NCBI GenBank assembly: GCA_035702665.1
Contig: DASSQD010000035.1
Location: 17,719-81,718 of the forward strand
Reading direction: 5' to 3'
DNA: 64,000 bases
Source: Burkholderiales bacterium
GTDB lineage: Bacteria > Pseudomonadota > Gammaproteobacteria > Burkholderiales > SG8-39
The translations under genes were made by a program, and so were the position numbers. The notes under the pieces were generated by a model, which was not told where the DNA came from, searched no databases, and worked only from the letters and a program-made list of their open reading frames with translations. How positions within the stretch are numbered: position 1 is the first letter of the stretch; every line of letters starts with the position of its first letter. Shown one piece after another: positions 16,651 through 33,540 of this stretch.

Positions 16651-16732
16651 GGTTGAGGTCGCAGTACGACCTTAGACTTTTCAAGTTTTGGGAGACCGCA
16701 GCGTGCGGTCCGGCCAACGCAAGGAGACCACC

Positions 16733-18481
16733 ATGGGAACAGTCGAGCCGCAAGTCGCGTCCGGTCCCGACGCGCAAGCACAGCAGGTGACCGACGGCTT
16801 CAACCTGGTCATCGATGCCCTGAAGCTCAACGGCATCGACACGATCTACGGGCTGCCCGGCATTCCGATCACCGACCTCACCCGCCGCGCGCAGGCAGCG
16901 GGCCTGCGCGTGCTTTCCTTCCGTCACGAGCAGAACGCCGGCTATGCCGCGTCGATCGCAGGTTTCCTGACGCAGAAGCCCGGCATCTGCCTGACCGTAT
17001 CGGCGCCGGGCTTCCTCAACGGACTCAACGCGCTCGCGCACGCGACCGTCAACTGCTTTCCGATGATCCTGATCAGCGGCTCGAGCGAGCGGGAAATCGT
17101 CGACCTCCAGCAGGGCGACTACGAGGAGATGGATCAGCTCGCGATCGCCAAGCCGGTCGCCAAGGCGGCCTTCCGCGTGCTGCACGCCGAGGATATCGGC
17201 GTCGGCGTCGCGCGCGCCATCCGCGCCGCTGTCTCCGGCCGCCCGGGCGGCGTCTACCTCGACATGCCCGCGAAGCTCTTTGCGGAGAGCATCGACGCCG
17301 CGGCGGGGAAGAATTCGCTGATCAAGGTCGTCGACGCCGCGCCGCGCCAGATACCCGCGCCGGAGGCGGTCAAGCGTGCGCTCGACCTGCTGAAGGGCGC
17401 GAAGAAGCCGCTCATCATCCTCGGCAAGGGCGCGGCGTATGCGCAGGCCGATGCCGACATCAAGTCCCTGGTGGAGAAGTCCGGGATTCCCTACTTGCCG
17501 ATGTCGATGGCCAAGGGGCTGCTGCCCGACACGCACGAGCTATGCGCCTCCGCCGCCCGCTCCTTCGTGCTGCCCGGCGCCGACGTGGTGATGCTGATCG
17601 GCGCGCGCCTCAACTGGCTGCTCTCGCACGGCAAGGGCAAGACCTGGGGCGGCAAGGGGTCCAAGGACTGGGGTGGCCAGAAGTTCATCCAGATCGACAT
17701 CTCGCCTCAGGAAGCGGACAGCAACGTGCGCATCGACGCGCCACTGGTCGGCGATATTGGGTCCTGCGTATCCGCGCTGCTTGCGGGCGTCGGATCGCTG
17801 CCCAGGCCGCCGGCCGAGTGGCTGAACGCGGTACATGAGAAGAAGACGACCAACGTCGCCAAGATGGCCGAGACGCTGTCGAAGAATCCCTCGCCGATGA
17901 ATTTCCACAGCGCGCTGAACGTGGTGCGCGATGTCGTCAAGGCCAACCCGGACGCGATGCTCGTCAACGAGGGCGCGAATGCCCTCGACTTCACGCGCTC
18001 GATCGTCGACATGTACAAGCCGAGAAAGCGCATCGATGTCGGCACCTGGGGCATCATGGGCGTCGGCATGGGCTACTGCGTCGCAGCGGCCGTAGTCACC
18101 CAGCAGCAGGTGATCGCGATCGAGGGCGACAGCGCCTTCGGCTTCTCCGGCATGGAAGTCGAGACGATCTGCCGCTACAACCTGCCGGTGTGCATCGTGA
18201 TCATGAACAACAACGGCGTCTACAAGGGCACCGACGTCGATCCGAACGGCCGCGATCCGGCGCCGACCGTGTTCGTCAAGGGCGCGCGCTACGACAAGCT
18301 GATCGAGGCTTTCGGCGGCGCCGGGGTGAACGCCACGACCCCCGCCGAGCTGAGGAAGGCGATGGAAGACGCGATCCGCTCGAAGAAGCCCACGCTCATC
18401 AACGCCGTCATCGACGAGACCGCGGGCACCGAGAGCGGTCGCATCACAAGCCTGAACCCGAACGCCGGAAAGAAGAAGTAA
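16733..18481 (+). CDS. oxc: Oxalyl-CoA decarboxylase (ThDP-dependent)
   Basis: About 582 aa. [28 protein letters not shown] at the N-terminus, ThDP motif [31 protein letters not shown], adjacent to frc. AAGGAG RBS. Confidence 0.9.
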
Positions 18482-18484
18482 GCC

Positions 18485-19756
18485 ATGCAAGCCCTCAAGG
18501 GAGTCCGCATCCTCGACATGACGCACGTCCAGGCGGGCCCGACCTGCTCGCAGTTGCTCGCCTGGATGGGCGCCGACGTGATCAAGTTCGAGAACCCGCA
18601 GGGCGACGCGACGCGCGGCCAGCTGCGCGACGTGCCCAACGCCGACTCGCTGTACTTCACCATGCTCAACTGCAACAAGCGCTCCATCACGGTGAACATG
18701 AAGAGCGCCGAGGGCAAGACGGTGTTCGTCGATCTGCTGAGGAAATGCGACATCATCATGGAGAACTTCGGGCCCGGCGTGCTCGACCGCTTCGGCTTTT
18801 CCTGGGAGAAGATCCACGAGATCAACCCCAAGATCGTGATGGGCTCGATTAAGGGTTTCGGCTCCACCGGGCCGTACGCCGACTTCAAGGCCTACGAGAA
18901 CGTCGCGCAGGCGATGGGCGGCGCGATGAGCACCACCGGCGTGCCCGACGGGCCGCCGTTTGTCACCGGCGCGCAGATCGGCGACTCGGGGACAGGCCTG
19001 CATCTCGCGATCGGCCTGCTCGCCGCGCTGCGCCAGGCAGACAAGACCGGCCAGGGTCAGTACGTCGAAGTCGCGATGATGGACGGGGTGATGAACTTGT
19101 GCCGAGTCAAGTTCCGCGACCATCAGCGCCTGACGCGCGGGTCCCTCTCGGAATACTCGGTGCCGACCTACCAGAACATGGGCGATGTGCCGCGCGCCGG
19201 CAACGACTCGGGCGGCGGCCAGCTCGGCAACGCGGTCCATTGCAAGCCGCACGGAGCGAACGACTGGCTTTACGTGGTCGTGCAGGAAGCGGTGTGGGAA
19301 GACCTCGCGAAGCGCATCGGTCCGGACGTCGGCGTACCCGACCTCGCGACCGATCCGCGGGTGGCGACCATCGGCGAGCGCCGCAAGAACCAGAATCTCG
19401 TGTGGACGCTGCTCAACAAGTTCGCCGAGAAATACACCAAGCGCGAGCTGATGGCGATCCTCAACCCACTCGACGTGCCCTGCGGCCCGATCATGTCCAC
19501 CGAAGACCTGGCTACCGACGAGCACGTGCGCGGCCGCGACATGTGGGTCGAGCTCGATCATCCCAAACGGGGCAAGTGGTACAACGTCGGCATGCCGATC
19601 AAGCTCTCGGCCTCGCCCGCTGCGATCAAGCGCTCGCCCATGCTCGGGGAGCACACCGATGAGATCCTGAAGGAAGTCCTTGGGTACGACGACGCCAAGG
19701 TCGCCGGCCTCAAGCAGGCGGGCGCGTTCTCGATTCCTCCGAAGAAGGCGGCGTAG
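18485..19756 (+). CDS. frc: Formyl-CoA:oxalate CoA-transferase (family III CoA-transferase)
   Basis: [36 protein letters not shown]..., 423 aa, 3-nt gap after oxc. Confidence 0.9.
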
Positions 19757-19758
19757 GA

Positions 19759-20691
19759 ATGAAAATAGCCATCATCGGCCAGCAGGACTTCGGCAAGGCG
19801 GTCCTCGACGCCTTTCTCGCGCGCGGCGACCAGGTCGCCGGCGTGTTCTGCGCCCCGGAGAAGGAAGGCGCCAAGGCCGACGTCCTCAAGGTGGCCGCGC
19901 AGGAAAAGGGCGTGAAGGTGTTCCAGTTCTCTTCGCTGCGGGACAAGCAGGCGCACGATACGATGCGTTCGCTCGGCGTGGACCTAGGGGTCATGGCCTA
20001 CGTGCTGCAATTCGCGCCGCAGGATTTCGTGAACATCCCGAAGAAGGGCACCCTCCAGTATCACCCGTCGCTCCTCCCCAAGTACCGCGGCCCGAGCTCG
20101 ATCAACTGGCCCATCATCCGCGGAGACACCAAGACCGGTTTGACCATCTTCCGTCCGAATGACGGACTCGACGAAGGTCCGGTGATCCTGCAGAAAGAGA
20201 CGCCGATCAGCGCCGACGACACCCTGGGTAGCGTATATTTCGACCGCCTCTTTCCCATGGGTGTGAAGGCGATGCTGGAAGCGGCGGACCTGGTGACGGC
20301 GGGCAAGCACAAGGAGACTGTCCAGGATGAGGCCCTCGCGAGCTACGAAGGCTGGTGCCGCGCCGCCGAGGCCAAGATCAACTGGGCGAACCACGTCGAT
20401 TTCACCTATAACCTCATCCGAGGCTGCAATCCGGCCCCGGGCGCATGGACCACGCTCGCCGGCAAGAAGGTCCAGATCTTCGACGCCCGCAAGCACCTGG
20501 TGCGCACGTTCGGCGCAGTAAAGGGCAAGATCGGCGAGATCTCGGAGATCGGCCCGCAGAGCTTCTTCGTAACCGCCCAGGGAGGTCGGATCGAGGTGCT
20601 CAAGGCGAAGCACGAAGACGGCAAGAAGGTCTCCGCTGCGGAATTCGTCTCGCAGAACGGCATTGCGTCGGGCGCTCTGCTCGGCGGCTAG
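19759..20691 (+). CDS. Formyltransferase-family protein (Fmt / 10-formyl-THF dehydrogenase N-terminal hydrolase-like, N- and C-terminal domains)
   Basis: 310 aa. QYHPSLLPKYRGPSSINWPIIRGDTKTGLTIFRPNDGLDEGPVILQ carries the formyltransferase His and Asp. The start lies 2 nt after the frc stop. Confidence 0.7.
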   Translation: MKIAIIGQQDFGKAVLDAFLARGDQVAGVFCAPEKEGAKADVLKVAAQEKGVKVFQFSSLRDKQAHDTMRSLGVDLGVMAYVLQFAPQDFVNIPKKGTLQYHPSLLPKYRGPSSINWPIIRGDTKTGLTIFRPNDGLDEGPVILQKETPISADDTLGSVYFDRLFPMGVKAMLEAADLVTAGKHKETVQDEALASYEGWCRAAEAKINWANHVDFTYNLIRGCNPAPGAWTTLAGKKVQIFDARKHLVRTFGAVKGKIGEISEIGPQSFFVTAQGGRIEVLKAKHEDGKKVSAAEFVSQNGIASGALLGG

Positions 20692-20937: not shown

Positions 20938-23505
20938 ATGAGCAAAGCGGGCTTCTGGAAAAAGGACTGGTTCCTCGGTCTGGTGGTGTCGCTCGTGCTG
21001 TTGTTCGCCGGTGGCTCGCAGCTGATCCAGAGCCTGGAGCGCACGGCCTACGACTGGGGCGTCAGGGCGTCCTCGCGGATACCTTCCGACAAGGTCGCGA
21101 TCATCGCGATCGACAAGCAGAGCATCGACAACATCGGCCGCTGGCCCTGGTCGCGCGAGATTCACGCGAAGATGATCGAGCGACTCGCGGGCGTGAAGGC
21201 GAAGGTCATCGGCTACACGGTGTTCTTCTCGGAGCCGCAAATCGACCCGGGGTTCGCCTACGTCAACCGGCTTCTCGAGACCTACCACAAGATCGTTCCG
21301 GCCGACGCGAGCACGCCGCCCCGCGGCGTCTCCCCCGAAGTGCTGGAGATGGGCACTACGCTGCAGGAAGCGGAAAACGCGCTTAACACCGACCGGAAGC
21401 TGGCAGACAGCTTCGCCAAGGCGGGAAATGTGGTGCTGCCGATACTCTTCACCTTCGGCGAGCCACGCGGCAAGCCCGACAAGCCGCTTCCTGACTTTGT
21501 GCGGAAGAACGCGCTCGCCTTCCAGGGCAAGAGCGAGGACCTGCCGTTGCTCACGTCGGGGGTCGAGGTCCCCGTGGTCGAGAGCCTGGGCGCCGCGGCC
21601 GCGGCGGTGGGGCACCTGAACGCGGTTCCCGACGTCGACGGAGCGATTCGCACCGAGGCTTTGGCGATCACCTACTACGACGAGTTCTACCCGTCGCTCG
21701 CGGCGATGCTGGTGGCCAAGAGCCTCAACCTCACGGCCCAGGACATAAAGATTCGCCCGGGCGAGGCGCTGCAGATCGGGAATTTCAAGGTGAGCGCCGA
21801 TCCAACGATGCAGATGTACACGTACTTTTACAAGGACCGCGACGGCAGGCCCGCAATTCCGGAGGACTCGTTCTTCGACGTCGCGAGCGGCAAGATCCCG
21901 CTGGACAAGTACCGCGACAAGATCGTTCTTATCGGTCCGACCGCGGCCGGCGTCGGCAGTGTCTTCGTGACGCCGGTGAATCCGGCGATGTCGTCGGTCG
22001 AGCTCCTCGCCCACACGGTTTCCTCGCTGCTGCAAGGGCATTTCTTCGTCGCGCCCACCTGGGGCTGGATCGTCGAGAGGCTGGTGTTCCTGGTGGTCGC
22101 CGCGTACCTGATCGCGCTGCTTCCGCGTCTGTCCGCGGGCTTGGGCGCCGGTATCACTGCCGGCATCGTCGCATTGCTGCTCGCAACCCACTTCGTGCTC
22201 ATGACGGGTCAGGGGATGTGGCTGCAGCTCATGCTGCCGCTCACGCTCCTCGTCGTGGGGCACGTGCTGCTCGTGACCAAGCGCTTCATGGTCACGGAAC
22301 GCGGCAAGGAAGTGTCCGATGCACAATCGGCCGCGAACGCGCGCATGCTCGGCCTGGCGTTCCAGGGTCAGGGCCAGCTCGACATGGCCTTCGACTATTT
22401 CCGCAAGGTCCCGCTCGACGACACCGTGATGGACAACCTCTACAACCTCGCGCTGGACTTCGAGCGCAAGCGCCAGTTCAACAAGGCCGAGGCGGTGTTC
22501 AGCTACATGGCCGGGTACAACCCCAAATTCCGAGACCTCGAATCCAAGCTCTCCCGCGCCAAGCAGATGTCGGAGACAGTCATTCTCGGTGGGGCGACGA
22601 CCCACCCGGGCGGCACGCTGGCGCTGGGCGGAGGGACGGAAAAGCCGATGCTCGGGCGCTACCAGGTCGAGAAAGAGCTAGGCAAGGGCGCCATGGGTGT
22701 CGTATACCTGGGTAAGGACCCGAAGATCGGCCGGGTCGTCGCTATCAAGACGATGGCGCTGTCGCAGGAATTCGAGGCGGACGAGTTGGCCGAGGTAAAG
22801 GAGCGGTTCTTCCGGGAGGCGGAGACGGCGGGGCGCTTGAGCCACCCGAACATCGTGACGATCTTCGATGCCGGCGAAGAGCACGACCTGTGCTACATCG
22901 CGATGGAGCTTCTGAAGGGAAAGGACCTGATTCCCTATACCAAGGCCGGCAGCACCCTCCCGCTGGAGAAGGTCGTATCGATTGTCGCGCGGGTCGCCGA
23001 TGCGCTGGGGTACGCGCACAAGCACAACGTGGTGCACCGGGACGTCAAGCCGGCGAACGTCATGTACGAGCTGGAGAACGACGTGGTCAAGGTGACCGAT
23101 TTCGGCATTGCCAGGATCACCGACTCCTCCAGGACGAAGACCGGTATGGTGCTGGGCACGCCGTCCTACATGTCACCCGAGCAGCTGCAGGGAAAGAAGA
23201 TCGACGGTCGCAGCGACCTGTTCTCGCTCGCGGTCAGCTTGTACCAGTTGGCCTGCGGCGAGCTGCCCTTCAAGGGAGAATCGATGGCGCAGCTCATGTA
23301 CAAGATCGCGAACGAGGACGCCCCTGATATCCTGAAGTACAACACCACGCTTCCCCCGGCGTTCGTCGCGTTTCTGGACAAGGCCATGTCGAAGGAGGCC
23401 GATCAGCGCTTCCAGACCGGCGAGGAGTTCGCCTCTGCGTTACGGGCTGCCGTTGGCGGTACGGGTGCCGCTGCGGCGGGCACCGGGGTCGACATCACCC
23501 TCTGA
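20938..23505 (+). CDS. CHASE2 sensor / TM / TPR-like / Hanks-type Ser/Thr protein kinase
   Basis: 855 aa. The N-terminus has TM1 then IAIDKQSIDNIGRWPWSR (CHASE2), and three TM segments at about residues 380-450. The C-terminal kinase carries GKGAMGVVYLG, VAIKTM, HRDVKPANV, DFGIAR and GTPSYMSPE. Confidence 0.85.
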   Translation: MSKAGFWKKDWFLGLVVSLVLLFAGGSQLIQSLERTAYDWGVRASSRIPSDKVAIIAIDKQSIDNIGRWPWSREIHAKMIERLAGVKAKVIGYTVFFSEPQIDPGFAYVNRLLETYHKIVPADASTPPRGVSPEVLEMGTTLQEAENALNTDRKLADSFAKAGNVVLPILFTFGEPRGKPDKPLPDFVRKNALAFQGKSEDLPLLTSGVEVPVVESLGAAAAAVGHLNAVPDVDGAIRTEALAITYYDEFYPSLAAMLVAKSLNLTAQDIKIRPGEALQIGNFKVSADPTMQMYTYFYKDRDGRPAIPEDSFFDVASGKIPLDKYRDKIVLIGPTAAGVGSVFVTPVNPAMSSVELLAHTVSSLLQGHFFVAPTWGWIVERLVFLVVAAYLIALLPRLSAGLGAGITAGIVALLLATHFVLMTGQGMWLQLMLPLTLLVVGHVLLVTKRFMVTERGKEVSDAQSAANARMLGLAFQGQGQLDMAFDYFRKVPLDDTVMDNLYNLALDFERKRQFNKAEAVFSYMAGYNPKFRDLESKLSRAKQMSETVILGGATTHPGGTLALGGGTEKPMLGRYQVEKELGKGAMGVVYLGKDPKIGRVVAIKTMALSQEFEADELAEVKERFFREAETAGRLSHPNIVTIFDAGEEHDLCYIAMELLKGKDLIPYTKAGSTLPLEKVVSIVARVADALGYAHKHNVVHRDVKPANVMYELENDVVKVTDFGIARITDSSRTKTGMVLGTPSYMSPEQLQGKKIDGRSDLFSLAVSLYQLACGELPFKGESMAQLMYKIANEDAPDILKYNTTLPPAFVAFLDKAMSKEADQRFQTGEEFASALRAAVGGTGAAAAGTGVDITL

Positions 23506-23520
23506 ATCGGGCCGAGCGCC

Positions 23521-24345
23521 ATGAGCCTGTCGGGAGCACTGGAGATCGCGAGCTGTACGGATCCCGGGATGGTGCGGGCTCACAACGAGGACTCGATCGC
23601 CTCCGACGGGGAAAAGGGACTGGTGGTCCTCGCCGACGGAATGGGGGGCTACAACGCGGGGGAGGTGGCGAGCGGCATGGCGACGACGGTGATCATCACC
23701 GAGTTGCAGCACTTGCTCGACAAGAGGACCCCGTACGAAACCGACGCGGCGAGCGGCCAGGTGATCGCGCACCAGCTGCTTCACGAGCAGATCGCCAAGG
23801 CGAACACCTCGATCTATCAGGCAGCGCAGAGCCAGCCTCAGTACGCCGGCATGGGGACGACACTGGTCGTCGCCCTGTTCTACGACAACAAGATGACGGT
23901 GGCGCATATCGGCGATTCACGCCTCTATCGCATGAGAGGCGACGAGCTGAAGCAGATCACCAAGGACCACTCCCTGCTGCAGGAGCAAATCGACAGCGGG
24001 GTGATCACCCCTCAGCAGGCCAAGCAATCGCAGAACAAGAACCTGGTCACGCGCGCTCTGGGCATCGATCCGATCGTCGAGCCCGAGATCCACGATCACG
24101 AGACGCAGCCGGGAGACATCTATCTGCTCTGCTCGGACGGCCTTTGTGATATGGTTGGCGACGAGGACATCGGCCTGGCGCTGCAAACACTGAGCTCCAA
24201 CTTGAAGCTGTGCGCACAGCATCTGGTGCAGACGGCGAACGACAACGGGGGCCGGGACAATATTTCGGTAATACTCGTTCGGGTGCTGCGGGACTTCCCC
24301 GCTTCGCGCGGCATCGTTGGCAAGCTGATGAGCTGGTTTAGATAG
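23521..24345 (+). CDS. PP2C-family Ser/Thr protein phosphatase
   Basis: 274 aa with RAHNEDS, LADGMGG, GTTLVV and SDGL..., NGGRDNISV motifs. Confidence 0.85.
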   Translation: MSLSGALEIASCTDPGMVRAHNEDSIASDGEKGLVVLADGMGGYNAGEVASGMATTVIITELQHLLDKRTPYETDAASGQVIAHQLLHEQIAKANTSIYQAAQSQPQYAGMGTTLVVALFYDNKMTVAHIGDSRLYRMRGDELKQITKDHSLLQEQIDSGVITPQQAKQSQNKNLVTRALGIDPIVEPEIHDHETQPGDIYLLCSDGLCDMVGDEDIGLALQTLSSNLKLCAQHLVQTANDNGGRDNISVILVRVLRDFPASRGIVGKLMSWFR

Positions 24346-24365
24346 TTGAGCAGAGGGATACTGCT

Positions 24366-25124
24366 ATGGCGAAGCTGATACTGAGCATGGACGGCCTGGT
24401 TCTGAAGGAAATCAACTTGACCAAGGAACGTACCACCATCGGCCGCAAGCCGCATAACGACATCCAGATCGACAATCTCGCGGTGAGCGGGGAGCACGCC
24501 GTGATTGTCACCATCCTGCAGGATTCGTTTCTCGAGGACCTCGGCAGCACGAACGGAACGGTCGTGAACGGACAATCGATCAAGAAGCACTTCCTGCAGA
24601 ACAACGACATCATCGAGCTAGGCAAGTACAAACTCAAGTACGTCAACGAGACGCCCGCGGGCATGGCGAAAGCCGCCGATTTCGAGAAAACCATGGTTCT
24701 GCGCCCCGGCGCGACTAGGCCAGCGGCATCCGCTGCTCCCGCCGCGCCGGTAGCCGCGGCCGCACCGGCACCCGCGGCGGCGAAGGCTGGCGACACCGTC
24801 CAGGGGCCTGCCACGACCATGCCACCGGCGGCTGCCAAGCCGGCGACGAGCGCCCCGCAGAAATCGGCGGCCCTGCAACTCCTTTCCGGGGCGAACGCCG
24901 GCAAGGAGCTCGATCTCACCAAGCCGCTCACGACGCTCGGCAAGCCTGGCGTGCAGGTCGCCGTCATCACGCGCAGGCCCCAGGGGTTCTTCATCACGCA
25001 TGTCGAGGGGGCCAGCTTTCCGGTGGTGAACGGCAAGCCGCTCGACGCCCAGGCGCACGCGTTGAACGATCACGACGTGATCGAGCTGGCCGGAGTCAAG
25101 ATGGAATTCTTCCTGAAGGCGTGA
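24366..25124 (+). CDS. FHA-domain protein (canonical N-terminal FHA, Ala/Pro-rich linker, degenerate C-terminal FHA-like domain)
   Basis: N-terminal TIGRKPHNDIQIDNLAVSGEHAVI...STNGTVVNG carries the G-R / S-x-x-H / N-G signature. The C-terminal domain (TTLGKPGVQVAVI...ITHVEG...VNGK) lacks the Arg and Ser. Confidence 0.8.
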   Translation: MAKLILSMDGLVLKEINLTKERTTIGRKPHNDIQIDNLAVSGEHAVIVTILQDSFLEDLGSTNGTVVNGQSIKKHFLQNNDIIELGKYKLKYVNETPAGMAKAADFEKTMVLRPGATRPAASAAPAAPVAAAAPAPAAAKAGDTVQGPATTMPPAAAKPATSAPQKSAALQLLSGANAGKELDLTKPLTTLGKPGVQVAVITRRPQGFFITHVEGASFPVVNGKPLDAQAHALNDHDVIELAGVKMEFFLKA

Positions 25125-25158: not shown

Positions 25159-27420
25159 CTGAAGCAGCATATCGTCCGAATTGCGCTTGGCCTCCTCGTC
25201 ACGCTGGTCTTTCTGGGGCACGCCGCCAAGCTCTATCAGATAGGGTTCATTACCCAGCTCGACAACATCATCTACGACTATCGGCTGCGCCTGACCATGC
25301 CGGGCACGGTCGACGACAGGATCGTAATCCTGGACATCGACGAGCGCAGCTTGGACCCGCGCGCTCTGGGGCGCTGGCCATGGAGCCGCGACAAGATCGC
25401 AGTGCTCCTCCAGAAGCTGTTCGACAAGTACGGCGTTCTCATCGTCGGCTTCGACGTCGTCTTCGCCGAGCCGGACGAGAGCTCCGGCCTCCCGGTCCTC
25501 GAGCGGCTGGGTAAAACACGTCTCAAGGACATCGGCGCCTTCCAGTCCGCGCTCGTGCAGTTGCGCCCCGAGCTGGATTACGACACGAGCTTCGCGAACT
25601 ACATTCGCGGACGGCCCGTGGTCCTCAGCTACTATTTCAACAGCGACAAGAACGCGGTCGAGAGCGGCGCGCTGCCCGAGCCCGTTCTCCCAGCCGAAAC
25701 GTTCAGCGGAAGGCGGATCACGATCCTCGATTGGCGCGGGTACACGGGTAACCTGGCCGAGTTCCAGGCGAATGCCAGCGCCGGTCATTTCAATCCGCGG
25801 GTGGACGACGACGGTGTATCACGGCGCGTGCCGATGCTCGCGGAATACAAGGGCCAGTACTACGAGGCGTTCTCCCTGGCGATCGTGCGGATGTACCTCG
25901 CGATCCAGGAAGCGGCGAGAAGCAAGGCGGCCGCGGTCAAGCTGCCGGATGTCAAGATCAACGCGATCCCGGATCGCTTCGTCACGCGCGGCTACACGGG
26001 AGTGGAGTGGCTCGAGGTGGGCCCCCTCAAAGTGCCCGTAGACGACGAAATTGCCGCGCAGGTTCCGTACCGCGGCCCGAGAGGCAGCTTCCCCTATGTT
26101 TCGCTGGCGGACATCTGGTCGGACAAAGTTGCGTCGGAGAAACTCCGAGGCAAGATCGCGCTGGTCGGCGCTACCGCGCCCGGCCTGTTCGATCTTCGTT
26201 CCGCACCGGTCGGGAATGTCTACCCTGGGGTGGAAATACACGCCAACCTGGTTGCAGGAATTCTCGACGGCAAGCTCAAGCAAAAGCCGCCGTACATGCT
26301 CGGTGCGGAAGTGGTGCTCCTTGTTATCGGCGGCATCGCGCTCACGTTTTTGATTCCCTTGCTTTCGCCCCTCTGGGCCTCGGCCGCGGCGCTGATCGGG
26401 ACGGCCCTCATTACACTCGTCGACCTCGCGCTGTGGTCGTATTCCGGCTTGGTGCTGCCCCTCGCCGCGTCGGTCCTGATGACTGCCACTCTGTATACGG
26501 TCAACATGGCTTACGGGTACTTCGTCGAGGCGCGTTCCAAGCGGCAGTTCACGGAGCTCTTTGGGCAATATGTCCCACCAGAGCTGGTGGACAAGATGGC
26601 CGAAGACCCGCAGCAGTATACGATGGAGCCGCACAACGCCGAGCTCACCATCCTGTTCTCCGACGTACGCGGATTTACCAGCATTTCGGAAGCGCTCAGC
26701 CCCGAGCACCTGCGCGAATACATCAACGAGTACTTGACCGACATGAGCGACATCATCCGCGCGAAGCACCGCGGCACGCTCGACAAGTACATCGGCGACG
26801 CGATCATGGCGTTCTGGAATGCCCCGGTCGAGGACAAATTCCACCCCCGCAGTGGCGTTCTCGCTGCGATGGAGATGCTGCGCCAGTGCGATGTCTTGAA
26901 CCAGAGGTTCGCCGCGCGCGGATGGCCGACACTCAAGATCGGCATCGGCGTCAACTCCGGAAACGTGCGCGTCGGCGACATGGGGTCCAAGATACGCAAG
27001 GCGTACACCGCGATGGGCGATGCGGTGAACGTTGCCTCGAGACTGGAAGGCAGGACCAAGCATTACGGGGCAGGGATACTCGTCGGTGAGGAGACACGCA
27101 AGGTTGTCCAGGACGTGGTTTTCAAGGAGATCGACAAGATCAAAGTCAAGGGGAAGGACGAGGCAATCACGATCTACGAGCCGGTCGGGATGGAGACCCA
27201 CGTCGAAAAGCGGGTTCTCGAGGAGCTCAAGCTCTGGCACCAGACACTGCGGCAATATCGCCTGCACCAGTGGGACCAGGTCGAGGTGGGTCTACTGAAT
27301 CTGCAGCGCATGAATCCCGACTGCTACCTCTACAAGCTGTACGCCAGCGAGGTCGCCGACAAGCGCCGTAATCCGCCGCCGGCCGGGTGGGACGGCGTAA
27401 CGGTGTTCGATGAAAAATAG
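25159..27420 (+). CDS. CHASE2 sensor / TM / class III adenylate cyclase (IIIb-like), probable non-canonical CTG start
   Basis: The first ATG (25297) would remove TM1 and the start of CHASE2. The frame is open from 25117 and encodes LKQHIVRIALGLLVTLVFLGHAAKLYQ..., homologous to the N-terminus of the kinase's CHASE2 domain. GGAGG at 25150-25154. Catalytic domain: ILFSDVRGFT, LDKYIGDAIMAFW, YTAMGDAVNVASRLE. Confidence 0.75.
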   Translation: MKQHIVRIALGLLVTLVFLGHAAKLYQIGFITQLDNIIYDYRLRLTMPGTVDDRIVILDIDERSLDPRALGRWPWSRDKIAVLLQKLFDKYGVLIVGFDVVFAEPDESSGLPVLERLGKTRLKDIGAFQSALVQLRPELDYDTSFANYIRGRPVVLSYYFNSDKNAVESGALPEPVLPAETFSGRRITILDWRGYTGNLAEFQANASAGHFNPRVDDDGVSRRVPMLAEYKGQYYEAFSLAIVRMYLAIQEAARSKAAAVKLPDVKINAIPDRFVTRGYTGVEWLEVGPLKVPVDDEIAAQVPYRGPRGSFPYVSLADIWSDKVASEKLRGKIALVGATAPGLFDLRSAPVGNVYPGVEIHANLVAGILDGKLKQKPPYMLGAEVVLLVIGGIALTFLIPLLSPLWASAAALIGTALITLVDLALWSYSGLVLPLAASVLMTATLYTVNMAYGYFVEARSKRQFTELFGQYVPPELVDKMAEDPQQYTMEPHNAELTILFSDVRGFTSISEALSPEHLREYINEYLTDMSDIIRAKHRGTLDKYIGDAIMAFWNAPVEDKFHPRSGVLAAMEMLRQCDVLNQRFAARGWPTLKIGIGVNSGNVRVGDMGSKIRKAYTAMGDAVNVASRLEGRTKHYGAGILVGEETRKVVQDVVFKEIDKIKVKGKDEAITIYEPVGMETHVEKRVLEELKLWHQTLRQYRLHQWDQVEVGLLNLQRMNPDCYLYKLYASEVADKRRNPPPAGWDGVTVFDEK

Positions 27421-28215: not shown

Positions 28216-29283
28216 ATGTGCGCGACTAGAGTGAGCGCGGAGACGTTGAAAGGCTTCGAGCCCATCGGCTCGCTGCCCGACTCGCGCCTCAACGAGCTCG
28301 CGGGGCTCTGCAAGCTCGAGACGGTCGGCAAGGACTCCGAGTCGTTTCTGGTTCGCAACATCTCCGGACAGGCCGTCTATCTGCTGCGCGGGGAACTAGT
28401 GCTGACCTACCCGGACGGTACGTCGAAGATCCTCGTGGGAGGCTCGGAGCGCTCGCGATATCCGCTCGCACATCGCGGCGAAGTCTTCACGAGCGCCAAG
28501 GCCGTCACGGAAGTGGAGCTGATGCGCATCGACGACGACCTTCTCGACGTCATGGCAACTTGGGATCAGGTCGCCGCGGTCGAGAGCTCGCCGAAGAAGA
28601 CCGCAAAGGAGAGCGGCGCATTCGCCAACTGGTCGATGATGTCGGGGATGTTCAGCGTCAGCAGCCTGAAGTACGGTGCTTTCTCGCAATTGCCGCCGGC
28701 ACATATCGACGAGCTGCTGGGTCGCTTCGAGCGCGTTACGTTCAAGAAGGGCGATGTCGTGATTCGCGAGGGTGCGGAGGGCGACTTCTATTTCGTGATC
28801 GAAACGGGCCGGTGCAGGGTCGAGCGGATGGTCGGGGGAGTGTCCATGCTGCTCGCCGAGCTGAAGAGCGGAGACGCTTTCGGCGAGGAGGCGCTGGTGT
28901 CCGAGGTCAAGCGCAATGCCACGGTGACGATGAAGAGCGACGGCACATTGCTGAAGCTATCGAAGAAGGATTTCGTGGAGCTGCTGCGCGAGCCGCTGCT
29001 GCAGCGCATATCCGCGGAGGACGCGCGCGCGAAGGTGGTCGACGGTGCGCAGTGGATCGACGTGCGCTATCCGTCCGAATACCAGTACGACAAACTTCCC
29101 GGGGCCATCAATATTCCCCTGTCGGACATTCGCAATGCCTTCGGCGCCCTGGACAAGGGAAAGGAGTACGTGCTCTACTGCCAGAGCGAGCGCCGCAGCG
29201 CCGCGGCGGCGTTTCTCATGGCCCAGCGGGGGTACCGGGCGTACGTGCTCGCGGGCGGCCTCTGGGGCGAAACGAAGCGGTGA
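28216..29283 (+). CDS. Cyclic-nucleotide-binding domain protein with a C-terminal rhodanese domain
   Basis: A degenerate N-terminal CNB-like domain. A second CNB domain has an intact phosphate-binding cassette (GDAFGEEALVSEVKRNATV). The C-terminal rhodanese has WIDVRYPSEY...YCQSERRSAAAA, including the active-site Cys loop. Confidence 0.8.
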   Translation: MCATRVSAETLKGFEPIGSLPDSRLNELAGLCKLETVGKDSESFLVRNISGQAVYLLRGELVLTYPDGTSKILVGGSERSRYPLAHRGEVFTSAKAVTEVELMRIDDDLLDVMATWDQVAAVESSPKKTAKESGAFANWSMMSGMFSVSSLKYGAFSQLPPAHIDELLGRFERVTFKKGDVVIREGAEGDFYFVIETGRCRVERMVGGVSMLLAELKSGDAFGEEALVSEVKRNATVTMKSDGTLLKLSKKDFVELLREPLLQRISAEDARAKVVDGAQWIDVRYPSEYQYDKLPGAINIPLSDIRNAFGALDKGKEYVLYCQSERRSAAAAFLMAQRGYRAYVLAGGLWGETKR

Positions 29284-29451: not shown

Positions 29452-31818
29452 ATGAGCGCGGTACTACAGACGCACGTGGGCGCGGCCGGCGATGTCAACA
29501 GCCGGTTGAATTTCCAGAAGAATCTCCAGAGCGTCACCAACAAGATCCACGCCACCACCAACGTGGATGAGATCATGCTGGAAGTCAGCGCCGACATCTG
29601 CACCTTGTTCAACGCCGACCGCCTGACGATCTACACCGTGGGCGAGGACAAGCAGAGCATTGTCTCCAAGGTCAAGACGGGCCTCAACTCGTTCAAAGAC
29701 CTCAAGCTGCCCATCGCAGAGCACTCCATCGCAGGCTTCGTTGCGCTGTCGAAGAAGATGCTCAGCCTGAGGGACGTCTACGACGAGAGCGAGCTCAGGG
29801 CACACAATCACAATTTGCGCTTTCTGCAGGAAGTCGACAAGCGCACGGGCTATCGCACCAAGCAGATGCTGGTTGCGCCGGTGGCGGAGCCCGGAAGCGG
29901 GGAACTGGTCGGTGTAGTCCAGTTAATCAACAACAAGGCCGGCGTTCCCTTTGGCCAACTCGCCGAAGAGGGCGTGAGCGAGCTTTGCCAGACGCTGGCT
30001 ATCGCCCTCAAGCAGCGCCAGAAGCCGCAGGTTCTCAAGACCAAGTACGACTTCCTCGTCGGCGACGCGGTGATCTCCGCCGCGGAGTTCGAGCTGGCGG
30101 CGCGCTCGGCGCGCAAGAAGGCGGTCGACGTCGAAGATGTGCTGACCCAGGAATTCCAGGTCAAGCTTCCCGCGATAGGCGCGGCGCTGGCGAAGTTCTT
30201 CGGGACGCCCTACGAGCCTTTCAAGCCGGATCGCATCAAGCCGATGGATCTGCTGAAGAACCTGAAGCGCGAGTACGTGGATTCCAATCAATGGGTCCCG
30301 ATCGAGGATTCCAAGGAAGGCCTCGTTATCCTTTGCCTCGATCCGGAGCGAATCAAGAGCTCGCGCATCGTCCAGAACGTCTTCCCGGGCCGCAAGCTGA
30401 CGTACCGCGTCACGACTCTCAAGGAGTTCAAGGACACGCTCAAGGCCTTCTATGGCGCGGACGCGGTCGACAGCGGCGACATCGGCGACATGCTTCACGA
30501 CCTCCAGGAAGACGAAGGTCCGGCGGAGACGGGGGATGACGATGTTTCGGCGGCGGCCGACAACGAGTTGGTCAAGCTGGTCAACAAGATCATCATCGAT
30601 GCCTACAACCAGGGTGCCTCCGACATCCACATCGAGCCTTATCCGGGCAAGGGGAAGACCGAGATCCGACTAAGAAAAGACGGCTCGCTGGTTCCCTATA
30701 TCGAGGTCCCGGGGTCCTACCGGAACGCCATTGTGGCGCGCATCAAGATCATGTGCGATCTCGACATCTCGGAAAAGCGCAAGCCGCAGGACGGCAAGAT
30801 CAAGTTCAAGAAATTCGGGCCGCTCGACATCGAGCTGCGGGTGGCGACGATTCCGTCCCAGGGCGGCGTCGAGGACGTGGTCATGCGTATCCTCGCCGCG
30901 GGGGAGCCTATCCCGATCGACAAGCTGGGGCTTTCGCCTTCAAACCTGCCAAAGCTCAAGGAGACGGTCAGCAAGCCCTACGGGCTGTTCTTCTGCTGCG
31001 GTCCCACTGGCTCGGGCAAGACCACGACGCTGCACTCGGTGCTGGGTTTCCTGAACACGCCCGACACCAAGATCTGGACTGCCGAGGACCCGGTCGAAAT
31101 CACGCAGAAAGGCCTGCGCCAGGTGCAGGTCAACAAGAAGGCGGGTCTCGATTTCGCTGCGGTCATGAAGTCCTTCCTCCGCGCGGATCCGGACATCATC
31201 ATGGTCGGCGAGATGCGCGACAAGGAGACCACCGGGACCGGCATCGAGGCCTCGCTCACGGGTCACTTGGTGTTCGCGACGCTGCATACCAACAGCGCTC
31301 CCGAATCCATCATCCGCTTGCTCGACATGGGTATGGACCCCTTCAATTTCGCCGACGCGCTGCTGGGGATTCTCGCGCAGCGGCTGGCCAAGCGCCTCTG
31401 CAGCAAGTGCAAGCAGCCCTACGCCGCCGGCGCGGACGAGATGAAGCATATCCTGCAAGAGTATTGCACCGAACTTCTGAATACCGGCCCGTTCAAGAAG
31501 GACGCCAAATCAGCCTACGAGCATGTCTACCGTGACCTTGCGAAGCACTACGCCAACGACAAGGGGCAGTTCACCCTTTACAGGGCCAAGGGCTGCGATG
31601 CCTGCGGCAATACGGGATACAAAGGGCGGGTCGGTCTGCACGAGCTCCTGATTGCGTCCGATCACCTCAAGAAGTTGATCCAGGAGCACGCGCGGGTAGC
31701 CGAGATCCTGGCGCTCGCCCTTGAAGAAGGTATGCGGACCCTGAAGATGGATGGCATCGAGAAGGTGCTTCAAGGCATTACCGACATGCCGCAGGTCCGC
31801 GCGGTCTGCATCAAGTAA
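29452..31818 (+). CDS. PilB/GspE-family secretion ATPase with an N-terminal GAF domain and a T2SSE_N domain
   Basis: About 788 aa. The GAF domain lies at about residues 30-190 (...FLQEVDKRTGYRTKQMLVAPV...GVVQLINNK). Walker A GPTGSGKTT, Walker B DPDIIMVGEMRD, His box GHLVFATLHTN, tetra-Cys CSKC...CDAC. ATG at 29452 (track start: TTG at 29446). Confidence 0.85.
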   Translation: MSAVLQTHVGAAGDVNSRLNFQKNLQSVTNKIHATTNVDEIMLEVSADICTLFNADRLTIYTVGEDKQSIVSKVKTGLNSFKDLKLPIAEHSIAGFVALSKKMLSLRDVYDESELRAHNHNLRFLQEVDKRTGYRTKQMLVAPVAEPGSGELVGVVQLINNKAGVPFGQLAEEGVSELCQTLAIALKQRQKPQVLKTKYDFLVGDAVISAAEFELAARSARKKAVDVEDVLTQEFQVKLPAIGAALAKFFGTPYEPFKPDRIKPMDLLKNLKREYVDSNQWVPIEDSKEGLVILCLDPERIKSSRIVQNVFPGRKLTYRVTTLKEFKDTLKAFYGADAVDSGDIGDMLHDLQEDEGPAETGDDDVSAAADNELVKLVNKIIIDAYNQGASDIHIEPYPGKGKTEIRLRKDGSLVPYIEVPGSYRNAIVARIKIMCDLDISEKRKPQDGKIKFKKFGPLDIELRVATIPSQGGVEDVVMRILAAGEPIPIDKLGLSPSNLPKLKETVSKPYGLFFCCGPTGSGKTTTLHSVLGFLNTPDTKIWTAEDPVEITQKGLRQVQVNKKAGLDFAAVMKSFLRADPDIIMVGEMRDKETTGTGIEASLTGHLVFATLHTNSAPESIIRLLDMGMDPFNFADALLGILAQRLAKRLCSKCKQPYAAGADEMKHILQEYCTELLNTGPFKKDAKSAYEHVYRDLAKHYANDKGQFTLYRAKGCDACGNTGYKGRVGLHELLIASDHLKKLIQEHARVAEILALALEEGMRTLKMDGIEKVLQGITDMPQVRAVCIK

Positions 31819-31865: not shown

Positions 31866-33521
31866 TTGGAGACCGACGAAGATCTGTTTCGCCGTCTCGA
31901 GCAGCTTAACGAGATCGGCTCTGCCCTCTCGCAGGAGAAAGATATCGATCACCTGCTGGAGAAGATCCTTCTCGCGGCGAAGGCGATCACGCGTGCCGCG
32001 GGCGGTACCCTGTACGTCCTGGAGCCCTCCGATGAGGGCCCGCGGCTCAGGTTCGCGATCATGAGGAACGAGGCATTGGGCATTGCGATGGGAGGCACCA
32101 CCGGCAACCCCATACCCTTCTATCCGGTTCACCTGTACGGAAAGGACGGAAAACCGAACAACCAGATGGTCGCTGCGTATGCGGCCCTTACCAGCAAGAC
32201 GGTCAACATCGCAGACGCCTATTCGGAAGAGGGTTTCGATTTCTCCGGGACACGCAATTTCGACAGGAAGACGGGATACCGATCCAAAGCTTTCCTCACC
32301 GTTCCGATGAAGAACCACGAAGGCGAGATCATCGGCGTGCTCCAGTTGATCAACCGCATGGAGCCGGGAACGAACGAGGTAGGCCCTTTTGCCTCGTCCG
32401 ACCAGCGTCTTGCGGAATCTCTCGCGTCGCAGGCTGCCATCGCGCTTACGAATCGGCAGCTCATCAATCAGCTCGAGGTATTGTTCGAGTCCTTCATCGC
32501 GCTCATCAACACCGCTATAGACGAGAAGTCCCCGTACACGGGGGGGCACTGTCAGCGCGTCCCTGTGCTCACGATGATGCTCGCCGAGGCTGTCAACGAG
32601 ACTTATGAAGGGCCGCTTCGCGAATTCAAGATGACCGACAAGGACCGCTATGAGCTTAAGATAGCCGGCCTGCTGCACGATTGCGGGAAAGTGACGACTC
32701 CGGTGCACGTCGTGGACAAGGCCACCAAGCTCGAGACGATCTTCGACCGGATCAATCTTCTGGACACGCGTTTCGAGGTGCTCAAGCGCGATCTCGAGAT
32801 CGAGGCGTTGATGCGCAAGCTTGAGGTCGCGCGGAAGCGTGGCCTGAGCGAGAGCGCTGCGCGCGAGGAATCGGCGCGCGTCGACGAGGGCTATCGCGAA
32901 GGTCTGCGGGCCCTGGAAAGCGACCGCGAGTTCCTGCGTCACGCCAACATCGGGGGTGAGGTCATGTCGGCTGAGGCGCGTGATCGCGTGGTCCGCATCG
33001 GTACCGGGCGCAAGTGGGTCGACGCGACAGGGAACATGGCGGACTTCCTCACGCCCGACGAGATCAACAACCTCACGATCGCTCGCGGTACGCTGACCCA
33101 GGAGGAACGCGAGACCATCAACCACCACATCGTCGCTACGATAAAGATGCTTGAGGCGCTGCCTTGGCCCAAGCATCTGCGCAACGTCCCGGAATACGCC
33201 GGCGGTCACCACGAACGCATGGACGGGAAGGGCTATCCCCGGGGACTGACGCGCGAGAAGATGTCCGTCCAAGCCCGGGTCATGGGGATTGCCGACATAT
33301 TCGAGGCACTGACGGCGAAAGACCGGCCGTACAAGCGCGGCAAGACTCTCTCCGAGTCGCTGAAGATTCTAGGCAACTTCCGGTTGAACGGCCACATCGA
33401 TCCGGACCTGTTCGACGTATTCGTGCGCAAGAAGGTGTATTTGCGCTATGCCGAACAGTTCCTCGACCGTGATCAGATCGACGAGGTCGAAGAGTCCAAG
33501 ATCCCGGGATTCGTGCCGTAG
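31866..33521 (+). CDS. GAF-domain HD-GYP phosphohydrolase (putative c-di-GMP phosphodiesterase)
   Basis: 551 aa. N-terminal GAF (...NFDRKTGYRSKAFLTVPM...GVLQLINRM). HD-GYP core: LLHDCGK ... GGHHERMDGKGYPRGL. TTG start. Confidence 0.85.
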   Translation: METDEDLFRRLEQLNEIGSALSQEKDIDHLLEKILLAAKAITRAAGGTLYVLEPSDEGPRLRFAIMRNEALGIAMGGTTGNPIPFYPVHLYGKDGKPNNQMVAAYAALTSKTVNIADAYSEEGFDFSGTRNFDRKTGYRSKAFLTVPMKNHEGEIIGVLQLINRMEPGTNEVGPFASSDQRLAESLASQAAIALTNRQLINQLEVLFESFIALINTAIDEKSPYTGGHCQRVPVLTMMLAEAVNETYEGPLREFKMTDKDRYELKIAGLLHDCGKVTTPVHVVDKATKLETIFDRINLLDTRFEVLKRDLEIEALMRKLEVARKRGLSESAAREESARVDEGYREGLRALESDREFLRHANIGGEVMSAEARDRVVRIGTGRKWVDATGNMADFLTPDEINNLTIARGTLTQEERETINHHIVATIKMLEALPWPKHLRNVPEYAGGHHERMDGKGYPRGLTREKMSVQARVMGIADIFEALTAKDRPYKRGKTLSESLKILGNFRLNGHIDPDLFDVFVRKKVYLRYAEQFLDRDQIDEVEESKIPGFVP

Positions 33522-33540
33522 GTCCCGGGAATACGGTTTG

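Follow-up and report, generated by a model that had tools for sequence, protein, structure and literature searches.

A betaproteobacterial gene array that may join phospho-threonine and cyclic AMP signalling to a type IV pilus-type ATPase

Introduction

Why would a complete phospho-threonine (pThr) signalling module sit beside the motor gene of a type IV pilus? The moment-to-moment decision to extend type IV pili is an open question, and it is raised here by a 64-kb stretch of DNA from a Burkholderiales bacterium (GenBank assembly GCA_035702665.1, contig DASSQD010000035.1, positions 17,719 to 81,718 of the forward strand; hereafter, the window is this whole stretch). At positions 20938-25124 of the window, on the + strand, a membrane Hanks-type Ser/Thr kinase, a PP2C phosphatase and an FHA protein are encoded consecutively, and a GAF-bearing, PilB-like ATPase is encoded 4.3 kb downstream, on the same strand and in the same array. 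A first-pass annotation of this DNA had described both arrangements, and we recovered them as described, the triad with its signature motifs intact. That annotation had overlooked a complete three-gene cyclic AMP (cAMP) module lying between the triad and the ATPase. It had also overlooked GAF domains, closest to those that bind cyclic nucleoside monophosphates (cNMPs), on both the ATPase and the HD-GYP protein encoded next to it, which would provide a more direct switch. We propose, with confidence that stands midway between belief and disbelief, that the triad is the pThr branch of a conserved signalling array controlling type IV pili in Betaproteobacteria, the whole forming a two-branch pThr and cAMP switch. 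That the triad and the pilus genes are functionally linked at all, we consider fairly probable.

Several signals are known to reach type IV pili. Cyclic di-GMP (c-di-GMP) binds the MshEN domain of MshE, PilB and PilF, and also acts through FimX-PilZ-PilB, which places a second messenger at the PilB N-terminal region (PMC5013675, PMC11656802). Together with a few protein cofactors, c-di-GMP (through MshEN or FimX/PilZ) makes up the known post-translational inputs to PilB, and neither GAF nor FHA nor Ser/Thr kinases are mentioned in a 2024 review of how PilB is controlled (PMC11656802). The routes by which cAMP is known to govern piliation or twitching all run via transcription factors, as in CyaB-Vfr of Pseudomonas aeruginosa (PMC11656802) and Cya1-Sycrp1/2 of Synechocystis (PMC7690835), and in the latter organism the Ser/Thr kinases SpkA and SpkB have an effect on motility too (PMC2176072). 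A search of the literature with the terms CHASE2, FHA, PilB, GAF, cAMP, Hanks kinase and type IV pili, whose coverage excludes some journals, returned no description of the gene cluster reported here.

Results

The array is kept as a unit across Betaproteobacteria

Domains were called with Pfam on the open reading frames (ORFs) of the window (about 45 larger ones), and NCBIfam equivalog cut-offs were applied to selected proteins. On a single strand, the array reads kinase, PP2C, FHA adaptor, nucleotide cyclase, cyclic-nucleotide phosphodiesterase (PDE), a protein with cNMP-binding and rhodanese domains, GAF-PilB, GAF-HD-GYP and then a pilin (Table 1). From the kinase gene through the HD-GYP gene, the intergenic gaps measure 15, 20, 34, 15, 12, ~165 and 47 nucleotides (nt). 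This spacing fits one or two transcription units, and the array is probably co-transcribed. GC content runs between 0.60 and 0.69 in the window and is the same in the array as in its flanks.

To find relatives, we scanned a one-genome-per-species collection with an alignment of the FHA protein, which matched at least 564 stretches. The synteny counts given below refer to the best 80 of these, all from species-representative genomes of Betaproteobacteria, whose gene content was mapped by tblastn with the window proteins; the denominators are the loci whose contig permits judging the presence of the gene in question. The collinear order was seen almost everywhere in the 80 loci. Since it recurs in 80 independent species-representative loci, the order of the triad is far above chance. 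The genes upstream of the array differ between genomes, with Fmt in 37 loci and SucCD-TerC and GcvP-DAGK among the other neighbours, indicating that the array is kept as a unit and not as part of a frozen chromosome segment. The carriers among the best 80 include Azospira oryzae, Sulfuritalea, Sterolibacterium, Propionivibrio, Uliginosibacterium and many metagenome-assembled genomes (MAGs). The array lies in stable chromosomal contexts, and its proteins are 60-95% identical across relatives.

The most faithfully kept genes are those that join the FHA protein to its phosphatase and to the ATPase. The PP2C gene adjoins the FHA gene in 80/80 loci. The link to a pilus or secretion ATPase that the first-pass annotation had suggested is mirrored by an association with type IV pilus genes well beyond the present genome: of the 70 loci that could be assessed, 69 have a GAF-PilB gene downstream of PP2C-FHA, within at least two flanking contexts, and the sole assessable locus without it (L062), which reads TerC-PP2C-FHA-PDE-pilin, still has a pilin. 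A GAF-HD-GYP gene was found in 58/61 loci, the PDE in 70/75, the cyclase in 69/78 (plus 2 fragments) and the cNMP/rhodanese protein in 58/71. A prepilin gene with the same leader as that of the window follows ~200-900 nt downstream of the HD-GYP or PilB gene in 14 of 41 assessable loci. The most dispensable part is the kinase, present in 58 of 72 assessable loci and lost in the other 14 (19%). Its loss goes with that of the cyclase: all five assessable loci without a cyclase are also without a kinase (Fisher p = 1.2e-4; with the two cyclase fragments included, 1.8e-3; both uncorrected for phylogeny). The array can also be reduced to a minimum, as in L060, where PP2C, FHA and GAF-PilB follow one another with nothing between them and no cAMP genes.

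Two observations concern the genome records themselves. The MAG JBAYVU01 (Sterolibacterium sp.) holds two copies of the array on different contigs (L050 and L077), a duplication or mixed strains. Six carrier MAG records (L008, L011, L039, L046, L056 and L059) bear titles such as Bordetella parapertussis, uncultured Enterobacteriaceae and uncultured Streptomyces sp., which are apparent mislabels.

Genes for a complete, predicted cAMP module separate the triad from the ATPase

The first gene after the triad encodes a class III nucleotide cyclase, recognized by its FSDVRGF, KYIGDA and YTAMGDAVN motifs and by a Guanylate_cyc score of 79.1 bits (cut-off 21.9). Two substrate residues, the Lys of KYIGD and the Thr of YTAMGD, point to cAMP, and the protein is likely an adenylate cyclase. 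Its gene appears to start at the CTG at 25159 and not at the ATG at 25297 of the mechanical ORF listing. The CTG is preceded by a Shine-Dalgarno sequence, GGAGGGAG, and the 46 added codons restore an N-terminal transmembrane (TM) helix and the beginning of the CHASE2 domain; at the homologous position, 55 of 69 orthologues have TTG or GTG, and six loci of this clade have CTG. It is this start that reduces the gap between the FHA and cyclase genes to the 34 nt listed above. Gene calling that allows ATG, GTG and TTG starts only truncates the cyclase, which then loses its N-terminal TM helix. The CHASE2 regions of the cyclase and of the kinase are 26% identical.

The two genes that follow encode a predicted means of degrading the cyclic nucleotide and a candidate for binding it. 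The first product is a predicted class II PDE with the signature HSHLDH (HSHLDHISS), whose PDEase_II match scores 52.3 bits against a cut-off of 23.7 and spans amino acids (aa) 47-109 of the 255-aa protein (profile positions 83-147 of 340). The second carries a cNMP-binding domain followed by a rhodanese domain, whose loop retains a Cys (YCQSERRS). Its N-terminal ~155 aa (28216-28680) gave no Pfam match and, read by eye, are possibly a degenerate second cNMP-binding domain.

The ATPase and the HD-GYP protein carry GAF domains closest to cNMP-binding ones

The ATPase has the motifs of an assembly ATPase: the Walker A GPTGSGKTT, an Asp box and Walker B including IIMVGEMRD, the His box TGHLVFATLHT and a tetracysteine CSKC...CDAC, with an extra ~30-aa insertion between the Cys pairs. 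Its nearest solved relatives are the PilB/PilF ATPases of type IVa pili (3jc8 at 1.3e-108; also 6f8l and 5tsg), with GspE behind at 4e-94. It scores under the NCBIfam equivalog cut-offs both for PilB (TIGR02538, 481 vs 675.65) and for GspE (440.3 vs 630.25). On these features, we assign it to a PilB-like but distinct subfamily, marked by the N-terminal GAF domain and the insertion in the zinc-finger region.

Between the GAF domain and the motor lies an MshEN domain (31 bits vs a Pfam cut-off of 23.1). The c-di-GMP-binding motif of such domains consists of two tandem 24-residue segments, RLGxx(L/V/I)(L/V/I)xxG(L/V/I)(L/V/I)xxxxLxxxLxxQ (PMC5013675). In the ATPase, the segment in which the first motif would be expected reads KYDFLVGDAVISAAEF (KYDFLVGD, with Asp for the motif Gly), and a by-eye reading found no clear second motif.

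The ATPase is followed by an HD-GYP phosphodiesterase, a predicted c-di-GMP hydrolase with the motifs HDCGK and GGHHERMDGKGYP (HHERMDGKGYP) and an HD_5 score of 151.8 bits (cut-off 27.2). Its HD-GYP domain is interrupted by an insertion of ~100 aa, at approximately aa 300-396 (Pfam HD at 227-300 and HD_5 at 396-515). This protein, too, begins with a GAF domain, and the two GAF domains are 33% identical over 104 aa. Compared with solved structures, the GAF of the ATPase is closest to those of CyaB2 (1ykd, 2e-25), PDE10A (2zmf, 1e-8) and PDE2A (1mc0, 1.6e-7), and that of the HD-GYP protein to PDE5 (3lfv, 7.6e-21) and CyaB2 (2.9e-12). One HD-GYP protein excepted, the top structure matches are all cNMP-binding GAF domains. 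The IAG and D..TGYRT segments align with the pocket segments of PDE2A, and the NKFDE-type motif is kept only in part. Because the GAF domains resemble this type, and because a cyclase, a PDE and a cNMP-binding protein are encoded in the same array, we regard a cyclic mononucleotide, most likely cAMP, as the candidate ligand of both.

The triad has an active-looking kinase and an adaptor with one pThr-reading domain

From its N-terminus, the kinase consists of a TM helix, a periplasmic CHASE2 domain, a TM block (~aa 375-450), a TPR-like segment (weak Pfam TPR matches at aa 455-580), a juxtamembrane linker and the Hanks domain. The catalytic motifs are all intact (GKGAMGVV, VAIK, HRDVKPAN, DFG and GTPSYMSPE), and the Pkinase match scores 184 bits against a cut-off of 31.7, so that the motifs describe an active-looking Hanks-type kinase. 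In 50 orthologues, Thr547 (SETVILGG, nt 22576-22578) is invariant within a juxtamembrane linker that is otherwise less conserved, and the activation-loop residues Thr733/735 are likewise invariant. The phosphatase belongs to the Stp1/IreP family (NCBIfam NF033484, 254.9 bits vs a cut-off of 230) and has the motifs DGMGG, GDSR, CSDGL and DNIS, including the metal-binding Asp.

The third protein of the triad, which we refer to as the adaptor, comprises two domains that are almost invariant across 80 sequences, joined by an Ala/Pro-rich linker of variable sequence and of 29-82 aa in orthologues. The N-terminal domain (aa 1-95; 78.8 bits vs a Pfam cut-off of 20.7) is a canonical FHA domain. Its pThr-binding residues G26-R27, S41, H44 and N63-G64 (GR...SGEH...STNG) are invariant in a nine-sequence alignment and are conserved to 98% or more in the set of 80, and its nearest solved structures are OdhI/GarA (E ~2e-8). 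The C-terminal domain (aa 165-252) is FHA-like, has a weak Pfam signal and lacks the pThr-binding loops. In a hhalign comparison, it aligned with the N-terminal domain at a probability of 88% (E 2.8e-6, 37% identity over 68 columns), the gap falling on the GR...SxxH loops, such that the Arg, Ser and His of pThr binding are deleted. We thus take it, on profile similarity, to be a diverged FHA duplicate, and the features of a pThr reader are found in one of the two domains, the N-terminal.

Further attempts to place the C-terminal domain were made with the domain alone. A profile search against PDB gave nothing significant. When the domain was searched in 1.84 billion representatives, it was recovered in 1369 clusters at 50% identity, always within the same small two-domain protein, and no informative fusion, including one of FHA with GAF-PilB, was among them. 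An AlphaFold2 model of the adaptor, built on a shallow alignment, had a mean pLDDT (predicted local distance difference test) of 53.8, with aa 96-165 disordered at low confidence. At this pLDDT, the model is unfit for a fold search, and it lends weak support, at most, to a disordered linker.

Ten residues past the first FHA domain, within variable sequence, stands the motif DFE(K/R)TM(V/I)(L/I)RP, whose Thr109 is the residue highlighted in Table 1. Of six distant relatives, five keep the motif in the form [FYI]-E-x-T-x-[LIV]-[LIVM], among them ones without a PilB gene nearby. Many FHA domains favour a Thr with a hydrophobic residue at position +3. Judging from its sequence, Thr109 is a candidate phospho-acceptor or FHA ligand of the pT-x-x-L type. 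It is because of this +3 preference that we single out Thr109 of the adaptor and Thr547 of the kinase, which, by analogy with GarA/OdhI and PknB, would be the likeliest phospho-acceptor or docking sites. Another candidate site in the adaptor, PATTMPP, is conserved in close relatives and not in the wider set, and was dropped.

Distant relatives keep the PP2C-FHA core

We examined the contexts of six members of the adaptor C-terminal-domain family, mostly more divergent ones. One locus, L083, reads PP2C-FHA-cyclase-PDE-GAF_PilB-pilin, and another, L082, reads kinase-PP2C-FHA-cyclase, after which its contig ends. Leeia speluncae (GCA_020564625.1; L084) has kinase-PP2C-FHA-cyclase and then a fusion, with no PilB within 10 kb. 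The fusion (12965-15346 of L084) is a 793-aa protein that holds a class II PDE, a GAF and an HD-GYP domain; as predicted from its domains, it would break down both cAMP and c-di-GMP, its two enzymes flanking a cNMP-type GAF. In L087, a kinase+PP2C fusion is followed by FHA, PDE and pilin genes, with no cyclase and no PilB; this soluble 572-aa protein (L087 8194-9912; also L088 5409-7127) takes the place of the separate CHASE2 kinase and PP2C. A contig from JGI 3300050046 reads PP2C-FHA-kinase-PP2C and has neither cAMP nor pilus genes within 10 kb. The contigs of L081 and L086, ~2 kb each, are too short to judge, and L086 has a PP2C gene directly upstream of FHA. Overall, PP2C-FHA is the invariant core, usually accompanied by cAMP enzymes and pilus genes, and GAF-PilB is near-universal only in the closer clade.

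One apparent fusion was rejected. The ORF at 8104-11190 of L083 would encode a 1028-aa GAF-PilB/pilin protein, and it is a read-through in which the PilB stop codon is missing and ~55 intergenic codons are included. We do not consider it a true fusion because the Met and leader of the pilin are still in place; the probable cause is a recent stop-loss, or else an error in sequencing or assembly.

Pilin, accessory genes and flanks

The array ends in a gene for a prepilin of the type IVa major-pilin type, and prepilin genes also follow the PDE in L062 and L087, both of which are without PilB. On either side of the prepilin gene, the window has a variable accessory gene. The first, encoding a TPR protein with a GT41 glycosyltransferase domain, lies outside the conserved core and is shared with three other loci (L006, L045 and L068); the second, encoding a polytopic membrane protein with C-terminal TPRs, has partial matches in L001, L002 and L077. 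By their domains, these two products may be enzymes that glycosylate or otherwise modify the pilin. An OGT-like, Ser/Thr-modifying enzyme in an array headed by a Ser/Thr kinase module is a curious pairing.

Directly upstream of the array (16688-20691) are genes for a thiamine pyrophosphate-dependent enzyme, a family III CoA-transferase and an Fmt-like formyltransferase, and a TctCBA transporter is encoded ahead of them. This enzyme set looks like one for oxalyl-CoA/formyl-CoA metabolism. It is syntenic with the array in about half of the related loci (37), and SucCD-TerC or other genes take its place elsewhere. The remaining window is housekeeping, with no other pilus machinery among the Pfam-scanned ORFs.

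Table 1. Positions in the window and supporting matches of the genes and sites of the array
Feature	Coordinates	Strand	Support
CHASE2 sensor Ser/Thr kinase, 855 aa	20938..23505	+	Pfam CHASE2 1.9e-54, Pkinase 3.8e-54
PP2C-type Ser/Thr phosphatase, 274 aa	23521..24345	+	Pfam PP2C 8.6e-15; NCBIfam Stp1/IreP
Tandem-FHA adaptor, 252 aa (second domain FHA-like)	24366..25124	+	Pfam FHA 4.1e-22; conservation across 80 sequences
Adaptor motif D105-F-E-K-T109-M-V-L-R-P114	24678..24707	+	Thr109 invariant, 80/80
CHASE2-TM-class III nucleotide cyclase, 753 aa, CTG start	25159..27420	+	Pfam CHASE2 2.2e-49, Guanylate_cyc 4e-22
Predicted class II (metallo-beta-lactamase fold) 3',5'-cyclic-nucleotide phosphodiesterase, 255 aa	27436..28203	+	Pfam Lactamase_B_2 5e-17, PDEase_II 6.2e-14
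Candidate cNMP receptor, 355 aa: N-terminal region, cNMP-binding domain, rhodanese	28216..29283	+	Pfam cNMP_binding 3.3e-19, Rhodanese 5e-15
GAF-(MshEN/GSPII-like)-PilB-family hexameric ATPase, 788 aa from ATG 29452 (ORF 29446/29452)	29452..31818	+	Pfam T2SSE 9.2e-114, GAF 4.2e-08, MshEN 2.4e-07
GAF-HD-GYP phosphodiesterase, 551 aa, predicted c-di-GMP hydrolase	31866..33521	+	Pfam HD_5 2e-44, GAF 6e-13
TPR + GT41 (OGT-like) glycosyltransferase, variable accessory	33448..35856	+	Pfam TPR families, Glyco_transf_41 5.2e-22
Type IVa major-pilin-type prepilin	36037..36525	+	Pfam Pilin 1.4e-12, N_methyl 9.7e-10
Polytopic membrane protein + C-terminal TPR, variable accessory	36583..38274	+	Pfam TPR; weak PMT_2 (GT-C) 5.3e-4, below cut-off

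Discussion

The array resembles several known systems in part. The first-pass annotation had likened the triad to the PpkA/PppA/Fha1 pathway of the type VI secretion system (T6SS), and this comparison holds for the logic and not for family membership. Like the H1-T6SS pathway of P. aeruginosa and the PpkA-TssL-Fha pathway of Agrobacterium, the array places a Hanks kinase, a PP2C and an FHA protein beside genes of an envelope-spanning machine, and the common logic would be that of a post-translational pThr on/off switch. However, the FHA protein is not TagH/Fha1, since it reaches 38.1 bits on TIGR03354 (cut-off 120.25), where the generic FHA part alone matches. Unlike the T6SS pathway, the array has a CHASE2 sensor, where that of PpkA is a periplasmic von Willebrand A-type domain; it also has a cAMP module between the triad and the machine gene, and a kinase that 14 of 72 loci do without. 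The absence of T6SS genes, which the first-pass annotation had pointed out, was seen again: no T6SS family was found by Pfam among the ~45 larger ORFs of the window, and the 80 loci were checked by tblastn with the window proteins only, none of which is a T6SS protein. We thus reject membership in the T6SS pThr pathway.

A parallel to the adaptor itself is found in Actinobacteria, in the PknB/PknG-PstP-GarA/OdhI system, where a small FHA protein likewise carries its conserved Thr motif apart from the FHA domain and a PP2C resets the system. In GarA/OdhI, an N-terminal pThr motif, ETTS, is the kinase substrate, and the FHA domain then releases metabolic enzymes. The adaptor differs in that its motif, DFEKTMVL, follows the FHA domain, in its second, degenerate FHA-like domain, and in its context of cAMP and pilus genes rather than the tricarboxylic acid cycle.

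On the side of the machine, the array shares with c-di-GMP control of PilB an MshEN/GSPII-like domain and a c-di-GMP phosphodiesterase encoded by the next gene, and it differs in that the ATPase has a cNMP-type GAF and an MshEN motif that looks degenerate. The best matches of the GAF domains, CyaB2 and the mammalian PDE2/5/6/10, share the principle of a cNMP-binding GAF driving a C-terminal enzyme. In contrast to the tandem GAFs of those proteins, the array proteins carry a single GAF, and the outputs are an AAA+-like secretion ATPase and an HD-GYP domain, neither of which is a known output of control by a cNMP-binding GAF. Unlike the CyaB-Vfr and Cya1-Sycrp routes, the array is without a CRP-type DNA-binding protein, and its candidate cAMP readers are the GAF domains and the cNMP/rhodanese protein. 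Candidate readers of this kind imply post-translational control. Judged from its domains, the array is best described as pThr and cAMP (and c-di-GMP) signalling on a GAF-bearing PilB-family motor and a pilin gene, a new variant of known control.

How could such an array work? We infer the mechanistic steps that follow from sequence. An envelope or extracellular cue would act on the CHASE2 domains of the kinase and the cyclase. The cyclase would set the level of cAMP, opposed by the class II PDE, and cAMP would bind the GAF domains, gating the PilB ATPase and the HD-GYP activity allosterically, such that pilus assembly from the neighbouring pilin and local c-di-GMP would be controlled post-translationally. 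In the pThr branch, the kinase would autophosphorylate, at its activation loop and Thr547, and phosphorylate Thr109 of the adaptor. The canonical FHA domain of the adaptor would read the pThr marks, and the degenerate FHA-like domain would hold a partner from the cluster, allowing the adaptor to tune the cAMP enzymes, the ATPase or both. The PP2C and the PDE would reset the system. Parts of the array are indeed linked by fusions, PDE+GAF+HD-GYP in Leeia and kinase+PP2C in L087.

The steps of this scheme do not carry equal weight. The most evident gate is the GAF domain of the ATPase itself. That the adaptor acts via the cAMP enzymes is a tentative choice, held at somewhat less than even confidence. 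In its favour are the 34-nt junction between the FHA and cyclase genes, the joint loss of kinase and cyclase, and the reduced PP2C-FHA-PDE-pilin versions, and we rank this route somewhat above one in which the adaptor acts directly on the ATPase. The most specific form of the proposal, in which the cluster's own cAMP gates GAF-PilB and GAF-HD-GYP directly while the kinase, PP2C and adaptor set the gain via Thr109 and Thr547, is doubtful as a whole.

Several points weigh against a two-branch switch on pili. All 80 loci are betaproteobacterial, so that the synteny could partly be inherited gene order. The PP2C is the only universal partner of the adaptor; the kinase is gone from 14 of 72 loci, the cyclase, PDE and cNMP protein are each sometimes gone, and L060 is devoid of cAMP genes altogether. 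Among the distant relatives, three of the four that could be assessed are without PilB nearby. A separate promoter could lie in the 165-nt gap ahead of the ATPase gene; promoter and terminator scans did no better than shuffles, and, with a regulatory RNA or riboswitch in mind, Rfam yielded no family at gathering score anywhere in the window, including this gap. The ATPase may be a paralogue with a different job, because it scores under the PilB cut-off and because pilC, pilD, pilMNOPQ and pilT were not found among the Pfam-scanned ORFs of the 64-kb window. Finally, cAMP as the product of the cyclase is read from two residues, with another cNMP as the alternative, and the kinship of the GAF domains to cNMP-binding ones is one of sequence, with the NKFDE motif kept in part.

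The alternative that survives best is the one that the first-pass annotation had favoured, a direct pThr switch on the ATPase. Here, the kinase would phosphorylate GAF-PilB or the adaptor, the FHA adaptor would dock on the ATPase and so turn assembly on, in the manner of Fha1 or Fha-TssL in the T6SS, and the cAMP genes would be a parallel input. GAF-PilB is indeed the partner most faithfully kept with PP2C-FHA (69/70), with nothing between them in L060, and the second, non-pThr FHA-like domain of the adaptor would be free for a partner. A precedent for coupling FHA to a type IV filament ATPase is given by Class III CpaF, an ATPase of Tad pili with an N-terminal FHA domain, found mostly in betaproteobacteria and of uncharacterised function (PMC12019362). 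CpaF is, however, a fusion and belongs to the Tad (type IVc) pili, whereas the array has a separate protein with two FHA-type domains and an ATPase of PilB (type IVa) type. A candidate substrate site on the ATPase is also missing: unlike the adaptor and the kinase, 55 GAF-PilB orthologues have no conserved Thr motif in a disordered segment, and their invariant Thr residues sit in the folded GAF and Walker regions. Moreover, Leeia, L087, L062 and the JGI 3300050046 contig have PP2C-FHA modules of this family with no PilB beside them, the ATPase is retained where the kinase is lost (14/72), and none of the 1369 clusters of the adaptor C-terminal domain is an FHA/GAF-PilB fusion. A direct switch is possible and unsupported by sequence, and we consider it unlikely.

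We give still less weight to the view that the genes are neighbours without shared function, the triad being a general envelope-stress or physiology phospho-relay whose targets lie elsewhere in the genome. Pleiotropy is typical of Hanks kinases, all loci come from one class, in which the gene order may be ancestral, and in one distant relative the 10 kb around PP2C-FHA-kinase-PP2C are free of cAMP and pilus genes. Against this, the 12-47-nt gaps on a single strand suggest co-transcription, and the array persists across different flanks while single genes come and go. In addition, the fusions join adjoining parts, the kinase and the cyclase are lost together, and even the reduced versions hold PP2C-FHA beside PDE and pilin. 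Such an unrelated relay thus appears quite improbable.

An anti-phage defence island (Pycsar-like or PD-T4-6) located near pilus genes by chance is the least credible explanation by far: PADLOC matches the kinase domain to PD-T4-6 (2.1e-92), the cyclase to PycC (3.1e-28) and the cNMP-binding domain to PycTIR (3.4e-08), and PDE orthologues match Pfam Anti-Pycsar_Apyc1 (in L083 with a flag for a weak match, in L087 without one), yet the PADLOC matches are confined to generic catalytic or binding domains and leave out the FHA, PDE, ATPase and HD-GYP proteins, a TIR/TM effector architecture is lacking, and the at least 564 matched stretches, with their stable chromosomal contexts, 60-95% identity and GC uniform with the flanks, are unlike mobile islands. 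We accordingly rejected membership in Pycsar or PD-T4-6, for want of a full-length match and of the effector architecture.

Should the proposed links fail, a documented and very widely conserved pair of CHASE2 kinase and cyclase would still stand. The carriers are environmentally common, comprising Rhodocyclales-, Burkholderiales- and Neisseriales-type lineages, many of them from soil, groundwater and lake metagenomes. For these bacteria, the array offers a compact, genetically tractable candidate for direct cNMP gating of a pilus motor, as well as a candidate for cross-talk from cAMP to c-di-GMP via GAF-HD-GYP and for a pThr/FHA layer on type IVa pili. It comes with specific mutable residues, Thr109 of the adaptor and Thr547 of the kinase, and with cultured hosts, Azospira oryzae DSM 21223 and Leeia speluncae. 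If the most specific form of the proposal is borne out, it would be the first case of a cyclic mononucleotide gating a type IV filament motor directly, and also the first control circuit of pThr and FHA to be described for the type IVa pili of bacteria, and pThr, cAMP and c-di-GMP would be three signalling currencies brought together in one operon.

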